This document shows, piece by piece, positions 5,453-32,759 of a DNA stretch of 64,000 bases. Below the pieces are notes generated by a model, which was given only the letters and a program-made list of their open reading frames with translations, had not been told where the DNA came from and did not search any database. Source of the DNA: Cerasicoccus frondis (GTDB lineage Bacteria; Verrucomicrobiota; Verrucomicrobiia; Opitutales; Cerasicoccaceae); assembly GCF_031296915.1 (NCBI RefSeq), contig NZ_JAVDPC010000003.1, positions 77,246 to 141,245 of the forward strand. The letters are read 5' to 3'. The translations under genes and the position numbers were made by a program. Each line of letters starts with the position of its first letter. Position 1 is the first letter of the stretch.

Positions 5453-6112
5453 GGCTGATGAGAATGTAACTATACCTAATGAAAAATTAATGAACGCTTA
5501 ATGTATTTTGAATTTTTGACCGGTTGCTTTGGAGGAAGGGGGGACTCAAGTTTATTGACGCTGGGCAAAATTGCCTCAGCAATTGGCTGCGTCATTGAGT
5601 CAGCGGCAGGGGGATTGCGGAAGCTAGCGCGCCCTGCTGCATATTCCCGAGCCGCCGACCGGCATGGCCGACCTCGGCGCGGTTACGCTTGGCGCCTTCG
5701 TGTTGCAACGCCGACGTAAGGGGGCGAGGGGGATAGGCGTTGGTTAAGACGCCCAGTTGTCGCGGAGTTTAAAGCTACGTCCAATAAGAAAGGTGGAGCC
5801 CGGTGTCCCGACCGGGCTTGTTCCATCCAGTTGACCAACTGAGAGGCAAAGCAAGCCTGCTCGGAACCGCCTCTTAGAAGAGCAGGACCAAGCTCCACCT
5901 CAGTTAGATCGTTAAGGAAACAAAGCCAAGACGGTTGGAACAGATGCGGGATCAGGTCTTGGGGGAATGTTTAAAATCTACGTTCTACCCTTTTTAGGTT
6001 CATCACCTCGAATCATCTTCATTTCATCAGAGACACTCACTCTTTTGGGATGGCGTAAAGAATGGATTCGTGAATGCGACGTGTTACATTAATCCGCCCA
6101 CAAATCACTGTA

Positions 6113-6922
6113 CTAACGGGTAGCGTATATATCATTCGCATAGATTAAACTTTGATTGCCAGACAAACGAACTAAGTTTTGGCGAAACTGAAGTCTACTG
6201 GCACTAGGATAGTTTTGCTTAAGGATGGACACATCCTCATTGAATCGGTCTGTCACCTTAAGGAAACCGCCAATAGCATAATATACATCCTTCTCAGAAA
6301 TTCGCATATCTCCAGTACGGACCTTTCTTGAGGTGGTAGTCTGATCATACTTCTGCCTAGCGGTTAGATTAAAAGAACCAATGTAAGCAACCTCACCACT
6401 CTGCACGTTGATTTGACCCTCAAATGCCAGACCTGGAAACATCAATTTTGAGGAAAGAAACGAATGGTTTAGGGGAACAAAGGCCCCTCCAGCATAAACT
6501 GTGGTTGATGCGTTGTACGTTCCAGTACATTCTAATCTGGCAATCCTGTAGCTCCCAACCGGCAACCCCTCAAAAGCAACAGTACCATATACCCTCCCGA
6601 TTTTGCTGATAGACTTAGAGTTTTTACTCTGGAATTTCTGCGATTTGACTAAAGAATCAAAAACCATAGTCCGATTAGTGGTGTCTTCTACAAGAACCAT
6701 CCTCACATTTCCTACATTAAGCACTGAGGCATCGGGTATTTCACCTTTTGACTCCCTGAGGGATACAATCAGTGAAAACATTACAGCGCCCGTAGATTTT
6801 CCAATCCCGACGTTAGTGATCTCTTGATTAACCTTTTTTTCAAATTGCTGACCAGCGCACCCTGATAAGATCGCGACTGCAGTAAAGCATATAGCCAGTA
6901 AGTTGGGATATTTTGAATTCAT
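6113..6922 (-). CDS. Lipoprotein of unknown function, in a low-GC islet
   Basis: The internal start MNSKYPNLLAICFTAVAILSGCAG has a lipobox (LSGC). ATG at 6922. The local DNA is AT-rich relative to the flanks. Confidence 0.55.
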   Translation of the reverse strand: MNSKYPNLLAICFTAVAILSGCAGQQFEKKVNQEITNVGIGKSTGAVMFSLIVSLRESKGEIPDASVLNVGNVRMVLVEDTTNRTMVFDSLVKSQKFQSKNSKSISKIGRVYGTVAFEGLPVGSYRIARLECTGTYNASTTVYAGGAFVPLNHSFLSSKLMFPGLAFEGQINVQSGEVAYIGSFNLTARQKYDQTTTSRKVRTGDMRISEKDVYYAIGGFLKVTDRFNEDVSILKQNYPSASRLQFRQNLVRLSGNQSLIYANDIYATR

Positions 6923-7236
6923 CTTTGAATGGATAATGATTAAAACCATACCCACATATGAATTCCGCCCCGAATCAATACTTTTCCGCAAATTGTGGTT
7001 GAATGCCATCGTGCCCTGATTGCCAGTGATCCGTAAGTTCCTCCGAACCGGTCTGAGCCCAGAGCAATCAAACGAAGACCCAAGGGATACCAGTTCCTCA
7101 CCAAGCCAAGAACACAGATGGTCGTAGCACCCTCCAGGAGGCCGAAATGAAAAACGATTGGGGACCAAATCTTAGCGCTATTCACGTTTGACCCCTTTTT
7201 AACCTACCTCTCCTTTTTCTCCGATCGCATTTAATT

Positions 7237-8106
7237 TTAGCATTCATAATCGCACTTACTGCATTTGCGCTGCTCTTCATATTCACTGTATGAAATGAAG
7301 CGCATATTCCCTTGTTGGCATTGGGGGCAATTATTCCGACCGATGAATTGGTAAAGCTGCTCCTCTGTGTATTCATCAGAATCAATCTGCTGCTTCAGTT
7401 CTCGTAATTCTACGCCTGATTTCTCTCCACTGTATGAGCCTATTAATACCTGGTTGTGGTATTGGTTATGCTCGTCGTCATCGTCTGCAAAACAGATTCT
7501 AGCTTTGGGGATGAAATGCAGCTGTTCCACAATCTTTTTAACCTGTTCAACAGTGAATCCTTCTCCCAAGGATACAGTGAAATTTTTTGGGGTGTAGGCT
7601 CCTTTTCCAAAGGTTTCATGGACTGGAATTTTATTTGCAGTAAATCGCATATGGATTTCTCTAAAGTGCTGCAATGTCTCATTCAATGCAACAGTTACTG
7701 TAGACCACTTAATTTCAACACTGCTTGATATTACTGGGATCTCCACAGGACTTCTCATGATTGCTTGCTGTAATTCCGCTAAATCCTCCCTAATTTTTGA
7801 TACTGATTCAGTGGTCACTTCTAACTTTGTAAAGCCTGTTTTAGATTCAATGTACTTGGAATAGTAAACATCTTCCTGCATTTCAGGTCTGAATTTGGTT
7901 TGAAGTAAAAAAATGGATATTAAGAAAGCAGGGACATTTGTTATACTGGCAATTACTAAAGTTGCTGGGATCCATGATGGATTCTCTATGTGTGCTGCAG
8001 CAGTAAGAAAACTTAAGTTCACTAATACTAGTCCGCACAGCCAAGCGGCCAAAAGCTGTATTGGTTTTGTGATTTTATGAGCGTCAATTTTGGGGCTATT
8101 ATCCAT
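7237..8106 (-). CDS. Membrane protein with two N-terminal TM helices and a C-terminal CxxC...CxxC zinc-ribbon, in a low-GC islet
   Basis: ATG at 8106. TM segments LLAAWLCGLVLVNLSFL and LVIASITNVPAFLISIFLL. C terminus CPQCQQGNMRFISYSEYEEQRKCSKCDYEC. AT-rich codon usage. Confidence 0.55.
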   Translation of the reverse strand: MDNSPKIDAHKITKPIQLLAAWLCGLVLVNLSFLTAAAHIENPSWIPATLVIASITNVPAFLISIFLLQTKFRPEMQEDVYYSKYIESKTGFTKLEVTTESVSKIREDLAELQQAIMRSPVEIPVISSSVEIKWSTVTVALNETLQHFREIHMRFTANKIPVHETFGKGAYTPKNFTVSLGEGFTVEQVKKIVEQLHFIPKARICFADDDDEHNQYHNQVLIGSYSGEKSGVELRELKQQIDSDEYTEEQLYQFIGRNNCPQCQQGNMRFISYSEYEEQRKCSKCDYEC

Positions 8107-28140: not shown

Positions 28141-28214
28141 AGGAAGGTGGTGTAACGACAACATGCGAGTCTCCAAAACTTGAGCCGAGGGTTTGACTCC
28201 TTCTCTTCCTGCCA
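28141..28214 (+). tRNA. tRNA-Trp (CCA)
   Basis: 74 nt. Acceptor AGGAAGG/TCTTCCT (one G-U). Anticodon arm CGAGT-CTCCAAA-ACTTG. T arm GAGGG-TTTGACT-CCTTC, with a T at the position of the usual T-loop C56. Encoded CCA. Confidence 0.6.
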
Positions 28215-28267
28215 CCAAAGCGCAGCTTTGGAAACTGGATGCTGTCGCATCCAACTTTCTCTTTTGT

Positions 28268-28343
28268 TCGGCGGTAGTTCAATTGGTAGAACCCCTCCCT
28301 GTTAAGGAGGCAGTTACAGGTTCGAAGCCTGTCCACCGAGCCA
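28268..28343 (+). tRNA. tRNA-Asn (GTT)
   Basis: Canonical cloverleaf. D arm GTTCAATTGGTAGAAC, anticodon loop CTGTTAA, T loop TTCGAAG, encoded CCA. Closely resembles bacterial tRNA-Asn. Confidence 0.8.
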
Positions 28344-28389
28344 CCAAGGCTTCGCCTTGGAACCGAGAAACTGCGTGTCTCATTTTTTC
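28344..28389 (+). repeat. tRNA-associated tandem-hairpin repeat, copy a
   Basis: CCAAGG-CTTCG-CCTTGG, then AACCGAG, then GAGAAAC-TGC-GTGTCTC, then ATTTTTT. Confidence 0.6.
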
Positions 28390-28443
28390 GCGCTTCGGCA
28401 TGCCTTCGGTCAGCCCTGTCCACCAATTTCATAAACGCCTGAG

Positions 28444-28505
28444 TGCATGATAAACGCGCCGCGTTTCTATAATTAACGAATGGCTGCTACTGAGATACAA
28501 TGATC
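28444..28505 (+). promoter_or_regulatory. Repeated promoter-like element, copy 1
   Basis: CATGATAAACG...TCTATAATTAACG...TACTGAGA, with a TATAAT -10-like hexamer. A near copy lies at 29973-30040. Confidence 0.4.
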
Positions 28506-28615
28506 TCCGAAGCCATCACTATTACCTTAAAGGGAAGATGCCGCCGTCTGTGTTGGAACACCAGGAAATGGCCCTCTGCTAGGATGCGGAGAAAACCAGA
28601 CGGCGGCGCAATTTT

Positions 28616-28653
28616 CCAAGGCAAGCCTTGGAACCGAGATGCTGCGCATCTCA
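28616..28653 (+). repeat. tRNA-associated tandem-hairpin repeat, copy b
   Basis: CCAAGG-CAAG-CCTTGG, AACCGAG, GAGATGC-TGC-GCATCTC, A. Sits immediately 5' of tRNA-Ser. Confidence 0.6.
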
Positions 28654-28661
28654 CATTCTAC

Positions 28662-28750
28662 AGAGGATGCTGCGTAGTGGGTTGCGACGCCGCTTGCTAA
28701 GCCGCCGATTCCCCGTGGGGAATGTGGTTCGATTCCACCGTCCTCTGCCA
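28662..28750 (+). tRNA. tRNA-Ser (GCT), class II
   Basis: 89 nt. Long variable arm TTCCC-CGTG-GGGAA. Anticodon loop TTGCTAA, with a C-C mismatch in the anticodon stem. Acceptor AGAGGAT/GTCCTCT. Encoded CCA. Confidence 0.6.
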
Positions 28751-28762
28751 ACTTTCTATTCT

Positions 28763-28838
28763 GGCCAAGTAGCCCAACGGCAGAGGCATCGGTCTTAAGA
28801 ACCGTAATGTGTGGGTTCGAATCCCTCCTTGGTTACCA
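28763..28838 (+). tRNA. tRNA with a Leu anticodon (TAA) but class I (short variable arm) architecture
   Basis: 76 nt. Anticodon arm TCGGT-CTTAAGA-ACCGT. T arm GTGGG-TTCGAAT-CCCTC. Discriminator A73. Encoded CCA. Confidence 0.5.
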
Positions 28839-28864
28839 ACTTTACGTTGCAACGAGATTGGATT

Positions 28865-28940
28865 GGGCGGGCATGTGCCATGGAGGCGACAGTGCTTTGC
28901 AAGCATCGTGCGGCGGGTTCGATTCCCGTACCGTCCACCA
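28865..28940 (+). tRNA. tRNA-Ala (TGC)
   Basis: Anticodon loop TTTGCAA. A G3-U70 wobble pair, the Ala identity element, is present. The D arm is poorly formed by eye. Encoded CCA. Confidence 0.6.
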
Positions 28941-28956
28941 ATTTTATTTACTGCAT

Positions 28957-29030
28957 GGTGATGTAGCTCAATGGCAGAGCAACCGGCCGATAACCGGTCG
29001 ACCCTGGTTCGATTCCCGGCATCACTACCA
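28957..29030 (+). tRNA. tRNA-Ile (GAT) with C33
   Basis: Canonical D arm GCTCAATGGCAGAGC. Perfect anticodon stem ACCGG/CCGGT with loop CCGATAA, so C where U33 is expected. Encoded CCA. Confidence 0.65.
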
Positions 29031-29084
29031 GCAGGGCTGGTCATAAATTCCGCGTACCGCAATCCGCGTACCGCAATTTCTTTT

Positions 29085-29157
29085 GCCTCCTTAGTTCAAT
29101 GGTAGAACAGCCGGTTTTGCCCGGTTGACCGTGGTTCGATTCCATGCGGGGGCGCCA
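29085..29157 (+). tRNA. tRNA-like gene with a 6-nt anticodon loop (TTTTGC); identity undetermined (Lys/Gln-like)
   Basis: Good acceptor, D arm (GTTCAATGGTAGAAC) and T arm. The anticodon stem CCGG/CCGG leaves only a 6-nt loop. Encoded CCA. Possibly a pseudogene. Confidence 0.4.
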
Positions 29158-29161
29158 ATTT

Positions 29162-29258
29162 CGTAGAGTGCGCGAGTATGGCTAAAGCGACTTGGCTTGG
29201 AACCAAGTGAATTGCCCCGTTGGCCGTTCCGTGGGTTCGAATCCCACCTCTGCGACCA
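29162..29258 (+). tRNA. Class II-like (long variable arm) tRNA carrying a UGG (Pro) anticodon
   Basis: 97 nt. Acceptor CGTAGAG/CTCTGCG. Leu-like D arm. Anticodon arm CTTGG-CTTGGAA-CCAAG. 23-nt variable arm with a hairpin. T arm GTGGG-TTCGAAT-CCCAC. A73. Encoded CCA. Confidence 0.4.
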
Positions 29259-29295
29259 AGTTTCTAAATATGCTTTGCATTGCAAAGCTTCTGAT

Positions 29296-29371
29296 GGGCT
29301 CATGGTGAAAGCGAAGATCATGCAAGGGCGCGAACCTTGCGTTGGAGGTTTGAGTCCTCCTGAGCCTACCA
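29296..29371 (+). tRNA. tRNA-Arg (GCG) with C33 and T-loop TTTGAGT
   Basis: Perfect anticodon stem CAAGG/CCTTG with loop GCGCGAA. Acceptor GGGCTCA/TGAGCCT. Encoded CCA. Confidence 0.55.
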
Positions 29372-29411
29372 GCAGGGCAATGCCCTGCACCCGAGATACT
29401 GGCGTATCTCA
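29369..29411 (+). repeat. tRNA-associated tandem-hairpin repeat, copy e (variant)
   Basis: CAGGGC-AAT-GCCCTG, ACCCGAG, GAGATAC-TGGC-GTATCTC, A, followed by a T-rich run. Confidence 0.5.
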
Positions 29412-29426
29412 TATTCTTTCTTAACT

Positions 29427-29504
29427 GCAGGTGCGTGGCCCAAGGGGCAGGGGCATCAGGTTGTGAGCCTGGGGAAGTGGGTTCGAATCCCACCCACCTG
29501 ACCA
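29427..29504 (+). tRNA. tRNA-His (GTG) with a G-1 extension
   Basis: Anticodon arm TCAGG-TTGTGAG-CCTGG. An extra 5' G precedes the acceptor stem. Encoded CCA. Confidence 0.6.
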
Positions 29505-29507
29505 CCG

Positions 29508-29547
29508 CCAAGGCTACGTCTTGGAACCGAGATGCTGCCGCATCTCA
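29508..29547 (+). repeat. tRNA-associated tandem-hairpin repeat, copy c
   Basis: CCAAG-GCTACGT-CTTGG, AACCGAG, GAGATGC-TGCC-GCATCTC, A. Confidence 0.6.
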
Positions 29548-29590
29548 TGGCTTCGCGATTAGTCATGCGCTCTTCGTAACTCCCTTTCAT

Positions 29591-29662
29591 CGCAGAGTAG
29601 CTCAACGGATAGAGCTCCGGTCTCATACGCCGGCGGTACGGGTTCGATTCCCGTCTCTGCAA
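29591..29662 (+). tRNA. tRNA-Met (CAT), initiator-like (C1-A72 mismatch), without an encoded CCA
   Basis: Acceptor CGCAGAG/CTCTGCA with the terminal C-A mismatch seen in bacterial tRNA-fMet. Anticodon arm CCGGT-CTCATAC-GCCGG. A73 is followed by CTG, not CCA. Confidence 0.6.
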
Positions 29663-29669
29663 CTGTTTC

Positions 29670-29744
29670 GGGTGCATCGTCCAGCGGCTAGGACAACGCA
29701 TTGTCTATGCGAAAACGCCGGTTCGATTCCGGCTGTGCCCGCCA
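29670..29744 (+). tRNA. tRNA-Asp (GTC)
   Basis: D arm GTCC-AGCGGCTA-GGAC. Anticodon loop TTGTCTA. T arm GCCGG-TTCGATT-CCGGC. Encoded CCA. Confidence 0.7.
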
Positions 29745-29752
29745 TTTTAATT

Positions 29753-29827
29753 TACGGGATAGTGTAGTCGGTAACACCGCAGATTTTGAATCTGCTATCG
29801 GAGGTTCAAACCCTTCTCCCGTAGCCA
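29753..29827 (+). tRNA. tRNA-Gln (TTG)
   Basis: Perfect acceptor TACGGGA/TCCCGTA, D arm GTGT/ACAC and anticodon arm GCAGA-TTTTGAA-TCTGC. Encoded CCA. Confidence 0.8.
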
Positions 29828-29865
29828 AAGCAAGCTTGGAACGGAGTTGCTGAGCATCTCATTTT
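29825..29865 (+). repeat. tRNA-associated tandem-hairpin repeat, copy d
   Basis: CCAAAG-CAAG-CTTGG, AACGGAG, GAGTTGC-TGA-GCATCTC, ATTTT. Confidence 0.55.
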
Positions 29866-29884
29866 GCCATCTCAATTTTTCTCT

Positions 29885-29960
29885 GGCGCTGAACCCCAAT
29901 GGCGAGGGCGCGGGCCTGCAAAGTCCGCTCTATCGGGTTCGAATCCCGGCGGCGCCTCCA
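29885..29960 (+). tRNA. tRNA-Cys (GCA)
   Basis: Anticodon arm CGGGC-CTGCAAA-GTCCG. Discriminator U73, the Cys identity element. Encoded CCA. Confidence 0.75.
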
Positions 29961-29972
29961 ATATTTCAGCGA

Positions 29973-30040
29973 CCATGATAAACGAAGTGCGATTCTGTAA
30001 TTAACCTCGTCCTTTCGAAATATTATACTGAGAGCATGAA
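29973..30040 (+). promoter_or_regulatory. Repeated promoter-like element, copy 2, at the start of a ~500-bp AT-rich spacer inside the tRNA array
   Basis: CATGATAAACG...TCTGTAATTAACC...TACTGAGA parallels copy 1. Confidence 0.35.
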
Positions 30041-30508
30041 ACATTCTAACTAAAATAAAGACTAAACAGCGTAACTAACGATCCGCCATGATATACAAAC
30101 TGTATTCAAAATTAGCTGATAATCCGGAAAAGATTTTAAAGGAGTTTAGGCTCAGAGTGAACTTTTCTGGAGACAGGTGATAAACTAATACACGAAATTA
30201 TGACATCGCCAATTATTGTAAGCGAAACGAGATATGATTCGTCTTCAGCGGGCTCAGACATGATCAGAATCGGGACCAGTCCATTCTTTTAAAACCCATC
30301 TCGTGGTATCATTCAATTCTCGGCTCATGAGTAATTTTTGCATTCCGCCAATCACATGAATTTCTGCGCGCTCAATCGAACGTTCGGTTAGCGCGCTCAT
30401 AACCCTTTCCACGTCGGTCGACGGCGGCGTCTTGCGTCCATTTTGATGGTCTTGCGATTCGCCGTTCCGTTTCAGGCAGTCTAAGCGACGTGAGAAACAT
30501 AGACATCT

Positions 30509-30583
30509 GAGGATATAGCTCAGTGGTAGAGCAGCTCGCCGTAAGCGAGTAAGTCGGCGGTTCGATTCCGCTTATCTTCGCCA
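30509..30583 (+). tRNA. tRNA with a Tyr anticodon (GTA), class I architecture and C33
   Basis: Canonical D arm GCTCAGTGGTAGAGC. Anticodon arm GCTCG-CCGTAAG-CGAGT. Short variable loop (bacterial tRNA-Tyr is normally class II). Encoded CCA. Confidence 0.5.
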
Positions 30584-30586
30584 AGA

Positions 30587-30658
30587 GAACTGTTAGCTCA
30601 GTTGGTAGAGCAGTGGATCGAAAATCCATTAGTCTCGGGTTCGATTCCCGAACAGCAA
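30587..30658 (+). tRNA. tRNA-Phe (GAA)-like with C33 and a degenerate 3' acceptor strand; abuts tRNA-Thr; probable pseudogene
   Basis: The body closely matches bacterial tRNA-Phe (AGCTCAGTTGGTAGAGC; anticodon loop TCGAAAA). The 3' strand ACAGCAA pairs with only 4 of 7 acceptor positions. No CCA. Confidence 0.45.
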
Positions 30659-30660
30659 TC

Positions 30661-30738
30661 GGAAAAGTAGTGCAGTCAGGTTAGCGCACTGGTCTTGTAA
30701 ACCAGAGGTCGAGGGTTCGAATCCCTCCTTATCCACCA
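30661..30738 (+). tRNA. tRNA-Thr (TGT)
   Basis: Anticodon arm CTGGT-CTTGTAA-ACCAG. T arm GAGGG-TTCGAAT-CCCTC. Encoded CCA. Confidence 0.75.
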
Positions 30739-31115: not shown

Positions 31116-32759
31116 TTGTCCAACTCCCCGCGGGCCCATTTTCTTTTTAACCTAAGTGCAGACGCATGGCTGAGCGTGACCCCGGAAGGTTACGGCTGCG
31201 TGCGTTGTGTGCTTCTTCTGAAACCTCAACCCAACACGAACATGATCCCGATCAAATATGTGAACATTCCGTATGAGCACTTTGGTCTCGTTTACCGTGA
31301 CGGACGTTTCGTGAAGCTGCTGAAGCCGGGTCGCACCTGGTACTTCGATCCACTCTGGCGAGTGTCCATCGGCAAGCTCTGGCAGGGCAAGCCGTGGATC
31401 GAAATGCCGGCGACGCAGCTGCGTCAGCTTCGCGAATCTCCCGCCATTCAAGAGCACGCAGCGTTCATAGACCTGAAGGATACGCAGCGCGCGCTCGTTT
31501 GGCTGGACGGCCGTTTCCACGGCATCCTCGAGCCGGGGCTCTACGCCTACTGGAAAACCGTCGTTGAAGTCCGCGTGGAAATCATGGATGTGCGCAACAT
31601 CCTGTTCCGCCACGACGAAGCCGACGTCATCCTCAAGACCGCTGTGGCCAAGCGTTACCTAGACGTTTACGAAACTGCCGAAAACCTCGGCAGCGTAGTT
31701 TACGTGGACGGACGCTTTCACGGCGTTTACGGTCCGGGAACCATTGGCTACTGGAAGAACGGTCTGACCGTTCGCCGTGAGTCCTTTGCGCTCCCGTGGC
31801 TACCGATGCACGACAACGAACTCGAAAAGCTCCGTGAAGACGGTCAGCTCGACGCGTTCGCATCCTTCGTCGATGTTCAGGACAACCAGCGCGCACTGGT
31901 GTGGTTTAACGGCCGCTTCCATTGCATTCTGGGGCCGGGCCTCTACGCCTACCTAAAGGAAGGGCATGAGGCCCGCGTCAACCTGATCGACGCGACGATG
32001 CCGCAGTTCATCTACGATGAGCTCGACGTCATCTTTAAGCACGCCGAGGCGCTTCGCCAGCTCGCGGTTTACGAAATCGGAGACAACGAGCAGGGCGTGC
32101 TTTACCAGGATGGGAAGTTCACTGAACTTCTCTCCCCGGGCCGCTACGCGTTCTGGAAGGATGTGGGCAACGTCCGCGTCCGCCAATACGATCTGCGTGA
32201 GCAAGTCCTCGACGTGAGCGGGCAGGAAATAATGACGGCAGACAAGGTAACCCTGCGTCTGAACGCCGTGCTGACCTACCGCATCGTCGATGTCCGCAAG
32301 GCAGCTGAAACCGTGAAGGACGCCGAACAGGCGCTCTACCGTGAGCTTCAACTGATCATCCGTGCGGAAGTCGGCGGCCGCACCCTCGACCAATTGCTGA
32401 CGGACAAGACTGCGGTGGCGCACGACGCCCTGAAGTCTATCCAGCAAAAGGCCGAAGGCTACGGTCTCGCAGTCAAGGGGCTGGGTATCCGCGATGTCAT
32501 CCTGCCGGGTGACATGAAGGAGCTCCTGAACCAAGTCATCGAAGCCGAAAAGGCCGCCCAAGCCAACGTCATCAAACGCCGCGAAGAAACGGCCGCCATG
32601 CGCAGCCAGCTCAACACGGCCAAGATGATCGAAGACAACCCGACGCTCCTGCGCCTGCGAGAGCTCGAGACGGTCGAAAAGATCGCTGAAAAGTCGAACC
32701 TGCAAATCTTCGTTGGGGATGGGCAGGGGCTCACCAAGAGCATTGTCAAACTAGTCTAA
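31116..32759 (+). CDS. SPFH/Band-7 domain protein with five N-terminal tandem ~35-aa repeats (DGRF...PG.YA.WK)
   Basis: C-terminal half carries an SPFH domain plus coiled coil (...VTLRLNAVLTYRIVD...IRDVILPGDMKE...). The N-terminal half has 5 repeats of Y.DGRFhg.L.PG.Y.YWK...VR. No TM helix found. An alternative start is at 31242 (MIPIKY). Confidence 0.65.
   Translation: MSNSPRAHFLFNLSADAWLSVTPEGYGCVRCVLLLKPQPNTNMIPIKYVNIPYEHFGLVYRDGRFVKLLKPGRTWYFDPLWRVSIGKLWQGKPWIEMPATQLRQLRESPAIQEHAAFIDLKDTQRALVWLDGRFHGILEPGLYAYWKTVVEVRVEIMDVRNILFRHDEADVILKTAVAKRYLDVYETAENLGSVVYVDGRFHGVYGPGTIGYWKNGLTVRRESFALPWLPMHDNELEKLREDGQLDAFASFVDVQDNQRALVWFNGRFHCILGPGLYAYLKEGHEARVNLIDATMPQFIYDELDVIFKHAEALRQLAVYEIGDNEQGVLYQDGKFTELLSPGRYAFWKDVGNVRVRQYDLREQVLDVSGQEIMTADKVTLRLNAVLTYRIVDVRKAAETVKDAEQALYRELQLIIRAEVGGRTLDQLLTDKTAVAHDALKSIQQKAEGYGLAVKGLGIRDVILPGDMKELLNQVIEAEKAAQANVIKRREETAAMRSQLNTAKMIEDNPTLLRLRELETVEKIAEKSNLQIFVGDGQGLTKSIVKLV

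Follow-up and report, generated by a model that had tools for sequence, protein, structure and literature searches.

In bacteria, a long variable arm is a textbook feature of tRNALeu, tRNASer, tRNATyr and the selenocysteine tRNA, tRNASec, only. One report describes a type I tRNALeu(CAA) that is essential in Streptomyces coelicolor and is leucylated by that organism’s leucyl-tRNA synthetase (LeuRS), a reaction dependent on an adapted leucine-specific domain, LSD (PMC6614811). Dense runs of tRNA genes, termed L-arrays or tRNA array units, have also been described (PMC8421152, PMC4758250), and in one of them, the trn operon of Anabaena sp. PCC 7120, 23 of 26 tRNAs were aminoacylated in vivo (PMC8421152). 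The present analysis concerns an array of 17 tRNA or tRNA-like genes (28141–30738, + strand; ARAGORN) in a 64,000-nt stretch of DNA, hereafter the window, from Cerasicoccus frondis (contig NZ_JAVDPC010000003.1, positions 77,246 to 141,245; Verrucomicrobiota, Puniceicoccales). Three of its genes are at issue: a class I, or arm-less, gene with a UAA anticodon, a class I gene with GUA at positions 34–36, and a class II gene, with a long variable arm, bearing a UGG anticodon. These had been singled out in a sequence-only reading of the window, and both ARAGORN and Rfam (model RF00005) agree with that reading on the location, architecture and anticodon of all three; the mismatch between architecture and anticodon is real. 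The explanation preferred here, with moderate confidence, is that the Leu and Pro genes encode spare tRNAs, exchanged horizontally and unusual in architecture but not in identity, which would decode UUR as Leu and CCR as Pro, and that the GUA gene is non-functional or non-decoding.

Isotypes were judged by nearest-neighbour comparison, by covariance models and by counts at identity positions. For comparison, 439 relatives of the SPFH/Band-7 protein encoded beside the array were found, and 80 of their loci were fetched and compared. These loci carry L numbers: L003 is Cerasicoccus maritimus NBRC 105382, and L004, L005 and L006 are metagenome-assembled genomes of Opitutales/Puniceicoccaceae. A 221-kb viral contig is numbered L086.

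The tRNAPro(UGG) gene is 97 nt long (29162–29258, + strand) and scored 47.4 bits against RF00005, for which the gathering score is 29 bits. In the ARAGORN structure the D stem has 3 bp and the D loop is large, the variable region spans 23 nt and the anticodon loop reads CUUGGAA. The variable stem has eight positions with one internal mismatch, and the remaining stems are intact. In bacterial tRNAPro the C1-G72 pair acts as a strong determinant and conservation of A73 is strict, and the set used by E. coli prolyl-tRNA synthetase (ProRS) also includes G35, G36 and G15-C48 (PMC9976931). Every one of these elements (C1:G72, A73, G35, G36 and G15:C48) is present in the window gene.

Homologues were recovered by synteny alone in two loci, as a 98-nt Pro(UGG) gene in L004 and a 97-nt Pro(CGG) gene in L005. 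A pattern consisting of GGCTTGGAACC, 18–33 nt and GGTTCRAATCC matched 10 viral contigs, and its NGG version matched 63 metagenomic stretches; many of the matched stretches lie in arrays of 20–34 tRNA genes, often with a normal tRNAPro of 75–80 nt in the same array. About 14 distinct long tRNAPro genes of 94–100 nt were obtained in this way from Opitutales/Puniceicoccaceae arrays and from viral and metagenomic arrays. The gene on the viral contig L086 is 81% identical to the window gene, and the variable region (44–48) is identical at 20 of 23 positions. Comparative folding of 13 sequences with RNAalifold gave a 7/5 cloverleaf with an 8-bp variable stem. Compensatory changes were found in 23 of its 29 pairs, among them all 8 pairs of the variable arm.

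The family retains the bacterial ProRS determinants. A73 is present in 13/13 members and G15 and C48 are invariant. C1:G72 occurs in 10/13 long and 25/30 short tRNAPro genes, as compared to 43/854 genes of all other isotypes (Ser, 0/56; Leu, 8/88). The marks of the competing synthetases are absent, namely G73 and C11:G24 for seryl-tRNA synthetase (SerRS), A15:U48 for LeuRS and U35 for tyrosyl-tRNA synthetase (TyrRS). Only UGG or CGG was found as the anticodon, with compensatory turnover in every stem; confinement of the anticodon to the Pro box while the stems turn over is the pattern expected if the anticodon serves as an identity element. A covariance model of the family scored the window gene at 94.5 bits and the L004 and L005 genes at 97–101 bits, whereas every other tRNA in 82 sources scored 58 bits or less, the best of these non-members being one tRNASer, followed by class I tRNAPro genes and a class II tRNALeu. 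Position 37 is A in 15/15 long tRNAPro genes, three of which are unbiased by the pattern, and G in 26/32 short tRNAPro genes of the same loci. A viral scan with a G37 pattern gave 1 match, compared to 10 with the A37 pattern. The systematic A37 suggests that these tRNAs may be independent of 1-methylguanosine at position 37 (m1G37), the TrmD modification.

On this comparative evidence, the gene at 29162–29258 is concluded to be a genuine tRNAPro of class II that has been under selection, with ProRS as the most likely charging enzyme. It would then read CCR codons as Pro. The long arm and A37 may, speculatively, free this tRNA from factors acting on housekeeping tRNAPro, or hide it from them. 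No description of a long-arm tRNAPro was found in the searchable literature, and two long-arm Pro sequences had no BLAST match among 50,697 records of isolated phages; as far as could be found, the family of 94–100-nt tRNAPro genes in phage-type arrays is previously undescribed. Hairpins inserted in the variable region were also seen in other class I isotypes (Asn, Glu, Ile, Lys, Asp, Trp, Met, Val and Thr) of phage-type arrays, in genes of 83–94 nt (loci L083–L155), and long-arm Asn(GUU) was found in at least four lineages of viral and metagenomic arrays.

In the case of tRNALeu(UAA), the gene is 76 nt long with a 5-nt variable loop (28763–28838, + strand; ARAGORN; RF00005, 52.8 bits). E. coli LeuRS requires A73 and the elbow formed by A15-U48 and G18G19, and both the long arm and the anticodon are dispensable (PMC9976931). 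The window gene lacks the long variable arm of class II and has the whole LeuRS set as defined in E. coli (A14, A15:U48, G18G19 and A73), along with U8. Nearest to it, at 82% identity, are 77-nt genes in synteny in L004, L005 and L006, which combine the same body with CAG, another anticodon for Leu. Across the fetched loci, 48 distinct Leu genes of 80 nt or less were found, with all six Leu anticodons represented. The identity positions are strongly conserved in this family (A14, 46/48; A15, 44/48; U48, 46/48; A73, 44/48), at frequencies that match those of 40 class II Leu genes from the same loci, whereas other class I tRNAs of these loci have A15 in 49%, U48 in 39% and A73 in 48% of cases. 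An alignment of 20 members showed compensatory change in 20 of 21 pairs. The Anabaena trn operon contains four arm-less Leu genes of 75–78 nt, one of which shares the D arm of the window gene. Given how few tRNAs of that operon escaped charging, at least one of the four must have been charged.

The gene at 28763–28838 is concluded from these comparisons to be a tRNALeu that has lost its arm and not another tRNA with a swapped anticodon. It can be assigned to a covarying family of arm-less tRNALeu found in arrays of bacteria of the Planctomycetes-Verrucomicrobia-Chlamydiae (PVC) group and in the Anabaena trn operon. With the LeuRS set retained, and because E. coli LeuRS needs neither the arm nor the anticodon, the tRNA would be expected to be charged with Leu and to read UUR.

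The GUA gene is of a different nature. This 75-nt class I tRNA-like gene with a 5-nt variable loop (30509–30583, + strand; ARAGORN; RF00005, 62.2 bits) has perfect stems and an encoded CCA. It carries G73, a G3:U70 pair and C33 in place of the universal U33, and its C32 and G38 can pair, in which case the minimum-energy fold closes the anticodon loop to 5 nt. From the bacterial tRNATyr set only G34 and U35 are present; the long arm, A73 and U33 are missing. TyrRS requires A73 (PMC9976931). The Tyr(GUA) genes of the fetched arrays have A73 in 16/21 cases and are mostly 81–87 nt long. Among about 1,000 array tRNAs the GUA gene had no close homologue, the best match being a tRNAVal at 76%, and no orthologue with the same anticodon was seen.

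The gene is the first member (M1) of a tightly packed trio with M2 (30587–30658) and M3 (30661–30738). This trio recurs a short way upstream of the SPFH gene in 9/9 Opitutales relatives, and the triplet at positions 34–36 differs in almost every one of them: GUA, CAU, ACG, AUC, UCA or GUU in M1; GAA, CUG, UAU, CAU or AUU in M2; and UGU, GAA, AAG, AGG or AUG in M3. The G3:U70 pair, which is the major determinant of alanyl-tRNA synthetase (AlaRS), occurs in M1 of the window with G73, not A73. It is absent from all positional counterparts and may therefore be there by chance. M3 is a Thr(UGU) gene on the + strand with an A4xA69 acceptor mismatch (ARAGORN). M2, also on the + strand, was identified as tRNA-Phe(gaa) by ARAGORN; its acceptor is short and degraded, CCA is lacking and position 33 is C. 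A covariance model of M2 found one copy 330–580 nt upstream of the SPFH gene in 67/80 loci, some of which have no array, in Planctomycetota, Verrucomicrobiota and other phyla. The M2 body is very conserved, with an acceptor of 4–6 bp and no CCA. Its 59 loops of 7 nt carry 26 different triplets, U33 is present in 37/59, and 8/67 copies have loops of 5, 6 or 8 nt. Pairing of the M2 variable loop with its flanks was considered and rejected: reverse complements in the 400-nt flanks were no commoner than for the loops of other loci.

Judged by these features, M2 is not a tRNA in the usual sense and is clearly not decoder-like. The GUA gene is concluded to be a fast-evolving tRNA-like gene that is not a tRNATyr, and it is probably not a functional decoder. 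Its class I shape calls for no explanation of its own. The sequence-only reading had allowed that this lineage might normally use class I tRNATyr, which is not what was found. It had also allowed that a different fold might place another triplet at positions 34–36. For the Leu and Pro genes this does not hold, because the extensive compensatory change among their homologues fixes the position of the anticodon through comparative folding. The triplet of the GUA gene is less secure as an anticodon because C33 and the C32:G38 pair shrink its loop to 5 nt.

The array as a whole reads Trp, Asn, Ser(GCU), Leu(UAA), Ala, Ile, Lys-like, Pro(UGG), Arg(GCG), His, Met, Asp, Gln and Cys, followed by a 550-bp gap and then Tyr(GUA), Phe(GAA)-like and Thr(UGU). 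The 17 predictions lie on a single strand within 2.6 kb, at a density of 6.5 genes per kb and with spacers mostly below 100 nt. CCA is encoded by 15/17 genes, and Rfam gave 15 matches to RF00005. Several members are irregular. The tRNASer(GCU) gene (28662–28750, + strand) has an 8-bp acceptor and a 4-bp T stem (8/4) in the ARAGORN structure, and its best Rfam match is tRNA-Sec at 39 bits, under the 47-bit threshold; (8/4) tRNASer has been reported from phage tRNA clusters (Mukai et al.; PMC5389517). The Lys(UUU)-type gene (29085–29157, + strand; ARAGORN) has a 6-nt anticodon loop and is 79% identical to the Lys(UUU) genes of L005 and L006, whose loops have the normal 7 nt. Having lost one loop nucleotide, it is probably a pseudogene. 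The Ala(UGC) gene (28865–28940, + strand) has G3:U70, an aberrant D arm and no Rfam tRNA match. In the T loops of the Trp (28141–28214) and Arg(GCG) (29296–29371) genes, U56 replaces C56, and the Met(CAU) gene (29591–29663) has an initiator-like C1xA72 mismatch and no encoded CCA.

A repeat search also revealed a two-hairpin spacer element in six + strand copies (28212–28257, 28341–28386, 28612–28657, 29369–29415, 29505–29550 and 29826–29866) that come after tRNA 3’ ends. The first hairpin is CCAAGG-tetraloop-CCTTGG, with UUCG, GCAA or UACG as the loop; the second is GAGAUGC-UGC-GCAUCUC, followed by a U-rich tail. Both hairpins covary. The motif had four matches in the window, all within the array, as compared to 0.13 expected by chance. 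A link between this repeat and the Pro anticodon loop through shared CTTGGAACC was judged coincidental because phage homologues already carry CCGGCTTGGAACCGG without the repeat.

The array occupies a 4-kb gap without convincing open reading frames (ORFs). One flank consists of ABC-transporter and folP genes on the – strand. The other consists of the SPFH/Band-7 gene, a small HNH gene and an unannotated 358-aa ORF, all on the + strand. The SPFH gene (31116–32759, + strand) encodes an HflK-like protein (Pfam PF01145, E = 2.4e-32; the NCBIfam HflK match was below cutoff). Across the 80 fetched loci, tRNA arrays of up to 39 genes very often precede the SPFH gene on the same strand in Planctomycetota and Verrucomicrobiota. 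The window array can be classed as an array of the L-array kind at a locus conserved across the PVC group, with the SPFH gene as the conserved partner of the arrays and of the M2 element, as judged from this synteny; no description of the linkage between array and SPFH gene was found in the literature searched. A conserved module of array, SPFH and HNH genes was rejected, the HNH gene being restricted to Cerasicoccus. The window HNH protein and the Anabaena HNH protein all8564 are similar at the catalytic motif only. An origin in cyanobacteria, prompted by the Anabaena-like array, was likewise rejected: the HIP1 motif (GCGATCGC) was seen once against 3 expected, and the flanking gene is that of Cerasicoccus.

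A Pfam scan of 10 flanking proteins revealed no aminoacyl-tRNA synthetase domain, and the same scan together with PADLOC detected no nuclease, toxin or defence gene adjoining the array; a defence system at the locus was discarded as a candidate, the PADLOC output being noise only. An exact-sequence look-up of the 358-aa neighbour protein returned no record, comparison of the array with plasmids by BLAST gave generic tRNA similarity only, and promoter and terminator scans gave nothing above background. Elsewhere in the window, a 2-kb stretch at 6001–8000 has 42% G+C, as compared to about 55% in the rest of the window, and may be foreign DNA.

Comparison with C. maritimus shows how the array changes. 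In C. maritimus the SPFH protein is 97% identical and the DNA around the array is about 95% identical. Leu, Ala, Ile, Pro and the GUA gene have all disappeared there by recombination in conserved arms (L003, 7860–8010 and 9100–9190). One product is a dead chimera that begins as the 5’ part of Ser(GCU) and ends as the 3’ part of the Lys-type gene, with the junction in the T loop. The Pro gene is precisely absent from the array. M1 disappeared separately, when the identical D arms of M1 and M2 recombined and left a chimera of the two. Such recombination, with conserved D and T arms as its sites, is the route by which the array decays. L004 and L005, with an SPFH protein only 64–65% identical, share the order Leu-Lys-(Ile)-Pro. 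Retention of this order in distant genera points to long-term maintenance with frequent local loss.

Several observations weigh against faithful decoding by the Leu and Pro genes. ProRS, a class II synthetase, approaches its tRNA from the variable-loop side, and a long arm could clash with it. The window tRNAPro departs from tRNAPro in general both in its class II form and in lacking G37, and in E. coli both G37 and the methylation of this base play a part in prolylation (PMC9976931). Its D arm is of class II type and Ser/Tyr-like. Most long tRNAPro genes were retrieved by a pattern that fixes NGG and A37, the unbiased members being those of the window, L004 and L005. The window copy of tRNALeu is weakened by G1.U72 and G2.U71 wobbles, a mismatch at 27:43 and one T-stem mismatch. 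According to the Streptomyces report, a LeuRS whose usual substrates are confined to type II tRNALeu could charge a type I tRNALeu only with the Streptomyces LSD domain (PMC6614811); charging of type I tRNAs is not universal, and leucylation by the Cerasicoccus LeuRS is therefore not guaranteed. The Leu, Pro and GUA genes are dispensable, as they have been lost in C. maritimus, and several array members are visibly broken. These last points would suit decaying relics, in which the three genes and much of the array would be unexpressed or non-functional pseudogenes from an old horizontal transfer. The Lys-type gene with its 6-nt loop, the Phe-like gene without acceptor or CCA, the Ala gene without an Rfam match, the losses and dead chimera in C. 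maritimus and the weak pairs of the Leu copy all fit such a history, and L-arrays are reported to be nearly silent under standard conditions (PMC8421152). However, this account is considered unlikely. Across genera, phyla and phages, compensatory change is extensive in the Leu and Pro families and their identity positions are conserved; covariation and conservation on this scale imply that a tRNA able to fold and be recognised has been under selection for a long time. The Pro copy of the window has no sign of damage and a score close to those of its relatives, the gene order has been retained in L004 and L005, and in Anabaena the array can be induced and yields charged tRNAs (PMC8421152); its inducers there are chloramphenicol and tetracycline. 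A pseudogene or a non-translational role, offered as an alternative in the sequence-only reading, fits the GUA gene best.

The same reading had proposed that the UGG tRNA is charged according to its body and places Leu or Ser at Pro codons. In its general form, deliberate mistranslation would have the class II UGG tRNA charged by LeuRS, SerRS or TyrRS, with Leu, Ser or Tyr inserted at CCR, and the UAA and GUA tRNAs charged with some other amino acid. The class II D arm and long variable arm of the UGG tRNA are in keeping with this, as are A73, which is also the Leu and Tyr discriminator, the G2:C71 pair of the window gene, a Ser determinant in E. coli, and A37 instead of the G37 of tRNAPro. 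There are precedents in nev-tRNAs (PMC3333845) and in allo-tRNAs that place Ser at Leu codons (PMC5389517). A mistranslating tRNA would combine the determinants of one amino acid with the anticodon of another, but in the Pro and Leu genes the determinants match the anticodon, and those of the GUA gene fit neither Tyr nor, G3:U70 apart, a clear alternative. The long tRNAPro keeps the ProRS set, with a C1:G72 pair that is absent from Ser genes and rare in Leu genes and an invariant G15:C48 where LeuRS requires A15:U48. It has neither G73 and C11:G24, the marks of SerRS, nor the U35 of TyrRS, and its anticodon is held to UGG or CGG despite the turnover of its stems. In the short tRNALeu family the LeuRS set is complete and each of the six Leu anticodons is represented, and no synthetase paralogue was present among the 10 flanking proteins scanned. 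Mistranslation is regarded as improbable on this basis, and the proposal for the UGG tRNA is not upheld. Its strongest form is given even less weight, namely that the long tRNAPro, with A37, is not a proline acceptor and is charged by LeuRS, SerRS or another enzyme, that the array or phage recodes CCR throughout the proteome, and that the GUA gene, through G3:U70, puts Ala at Tyr codons. Roles other than decoding are also doubtful: the genes might be decoys or replacements against anticodon nucleases or tRNA-modifying toxins, or processing or structural signals of a transcript joining array and SPFH gene. The long tRNAPro family occurs mostly in viral contigs and phage-like arrays, often beside a normal tRNAPro. 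Many other isotypes of those arrays carry inserted variable-arm hairpins, the neighbouring M2 is clearly not decoder-like, and phage tRNAs that evade tRNA-targeting defences are described in two reports (PMC10264068, PMC11555353). Yet a conserved anticodon meaning and synthetase determinants are the needs of a decoder and not of a decoy, and the scans with Pfam and PADLOC detected no nuclease, toxin or defence gene beside the array. Faithful spare tRNALeu and tRNAPro are thus the preferred reading, and if the Anabaena trn operon is a guide, the whole array would serve as a source of spare tRNAs when translation is under stress.

If this reading is correct, a class II tRNAPro that is maintained in evolution and common to large phage contigs and Verrucomicrobia would be new. 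The arm-less tRNALeu would be new in its wide distribution, the kind itself being already represented by the type I tRNALeu of Streptomyces and by genes of the Anabaena operon. Together the two variants suggest that a variable arm can be gained or lost without a change of amino-acid identity, and they offer natural test cases for the arm tolerance of ProRS, LeuRS, EF-Tu, TrmD and the ribosome. A tRNAPro independent of m1G37, as suggested by the systematic A37, has implications for frameshifting and for whether TrmD is essential. Mobile tRNA arrays appear to hold a reserve of tRNAs that deviate in structure and are probably faithful, which fits the idea that arrays supply tRNAs that remain workable when the housekeeping tRNAs are attacked or limiting. 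Annotation pipelines that flag disagreement between isotype and anticodon would mislabel both the Leu and the Pro variants.

The described systems differ from this locus in instructive ways. In Streptomyces, the precedent that the sequence-only reading had in view, Vargas-Rodriguez et al. (2021) reportedly found tRNAPro bodies with non-Pro anticodons and a dedicated ProRS paralogue encoded alongside. Body and anticodon disagree there, whereas in the long tRNAPro of the window the anticodon and the acceptor determinants agree and the architecture alone differs; the dedicated synthetase has no counterpart among the 10 proteins flanking the window array. The nev-tRNAs of nematodes (PMC3333845) resemble the long tRNAPro in joining class II architecture to the anticodon of a class I isotype. 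They keep Leu identity and are charged with Leu, so that the anticodon is the ‘wrong’ part, whereas the long tRNAPro keeps Pro determinants together with a Pro anticodon. The allo-tRNAs and (8/4) tRNASer and tRNAHis of phage clusters (PMC5389517) are likewise irregular long-arm tRNAs of phage or mobile clusters, and the Ser(GCU) of the window is 8/4. The UGG tRNA and all its homologues are 7/5, not the 8/4 or 9/3 of allo-tRNAs, and the neighbouring Ser(GCU) alone is 8/4. The long tRNAPro also has A73 instead of the Ser-type G73, and its family has Pro anticodons only, whereas those of allo-tRNAs span 35 codons.

The short tRNALeu of the window has the 5-nt variable loop of the Streptomyces coelicolor type I tRNALeu(CAA), which, according to its description (PMC6614811), coexists with class II tRNALeu and is leucylated by the single LeuRS. 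The same description presents the Streptomyces gene as an essential housekeeping gene served by a LeuRS with an adapted LSD domain, whereas the window gene is a dispensable array member. The array as a whole resembles the L-arrays, exemplified by the Anabaena trn operon (PMC8421152, PMC4758250). The threshold of Tran et al. 2015 for an L-array is at least 20 genes at a density of at least 2 per kb (PMC4758250); the window array exceeds this density and falls short in number with its 17 genes, and related PVC loci reach 39. The window array also differs in being chromosomal, upstream of an SPFH gene at a PVC-conserved locus, and not on a plasmid or an integrative and conjugative element (ICE). 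The Anabaena operon, unlike the window array, has a normal class II tRNATyr and a normal class I tRNAPro. As in the L-arrays, the window array is a dense run of genes on the same strand, most of them with CCA, in one orientation, with co-transcribable spacing and a patchy distribution, and its genes are presumably supernumerary. Its content varies among close relatives, as seen against C. maritimus, and pseudogenes are intermixed. With the Anabaena operon in particular it shares a nearby HNH gene and the arm-less tRNALeu, of which Anabaena has four.

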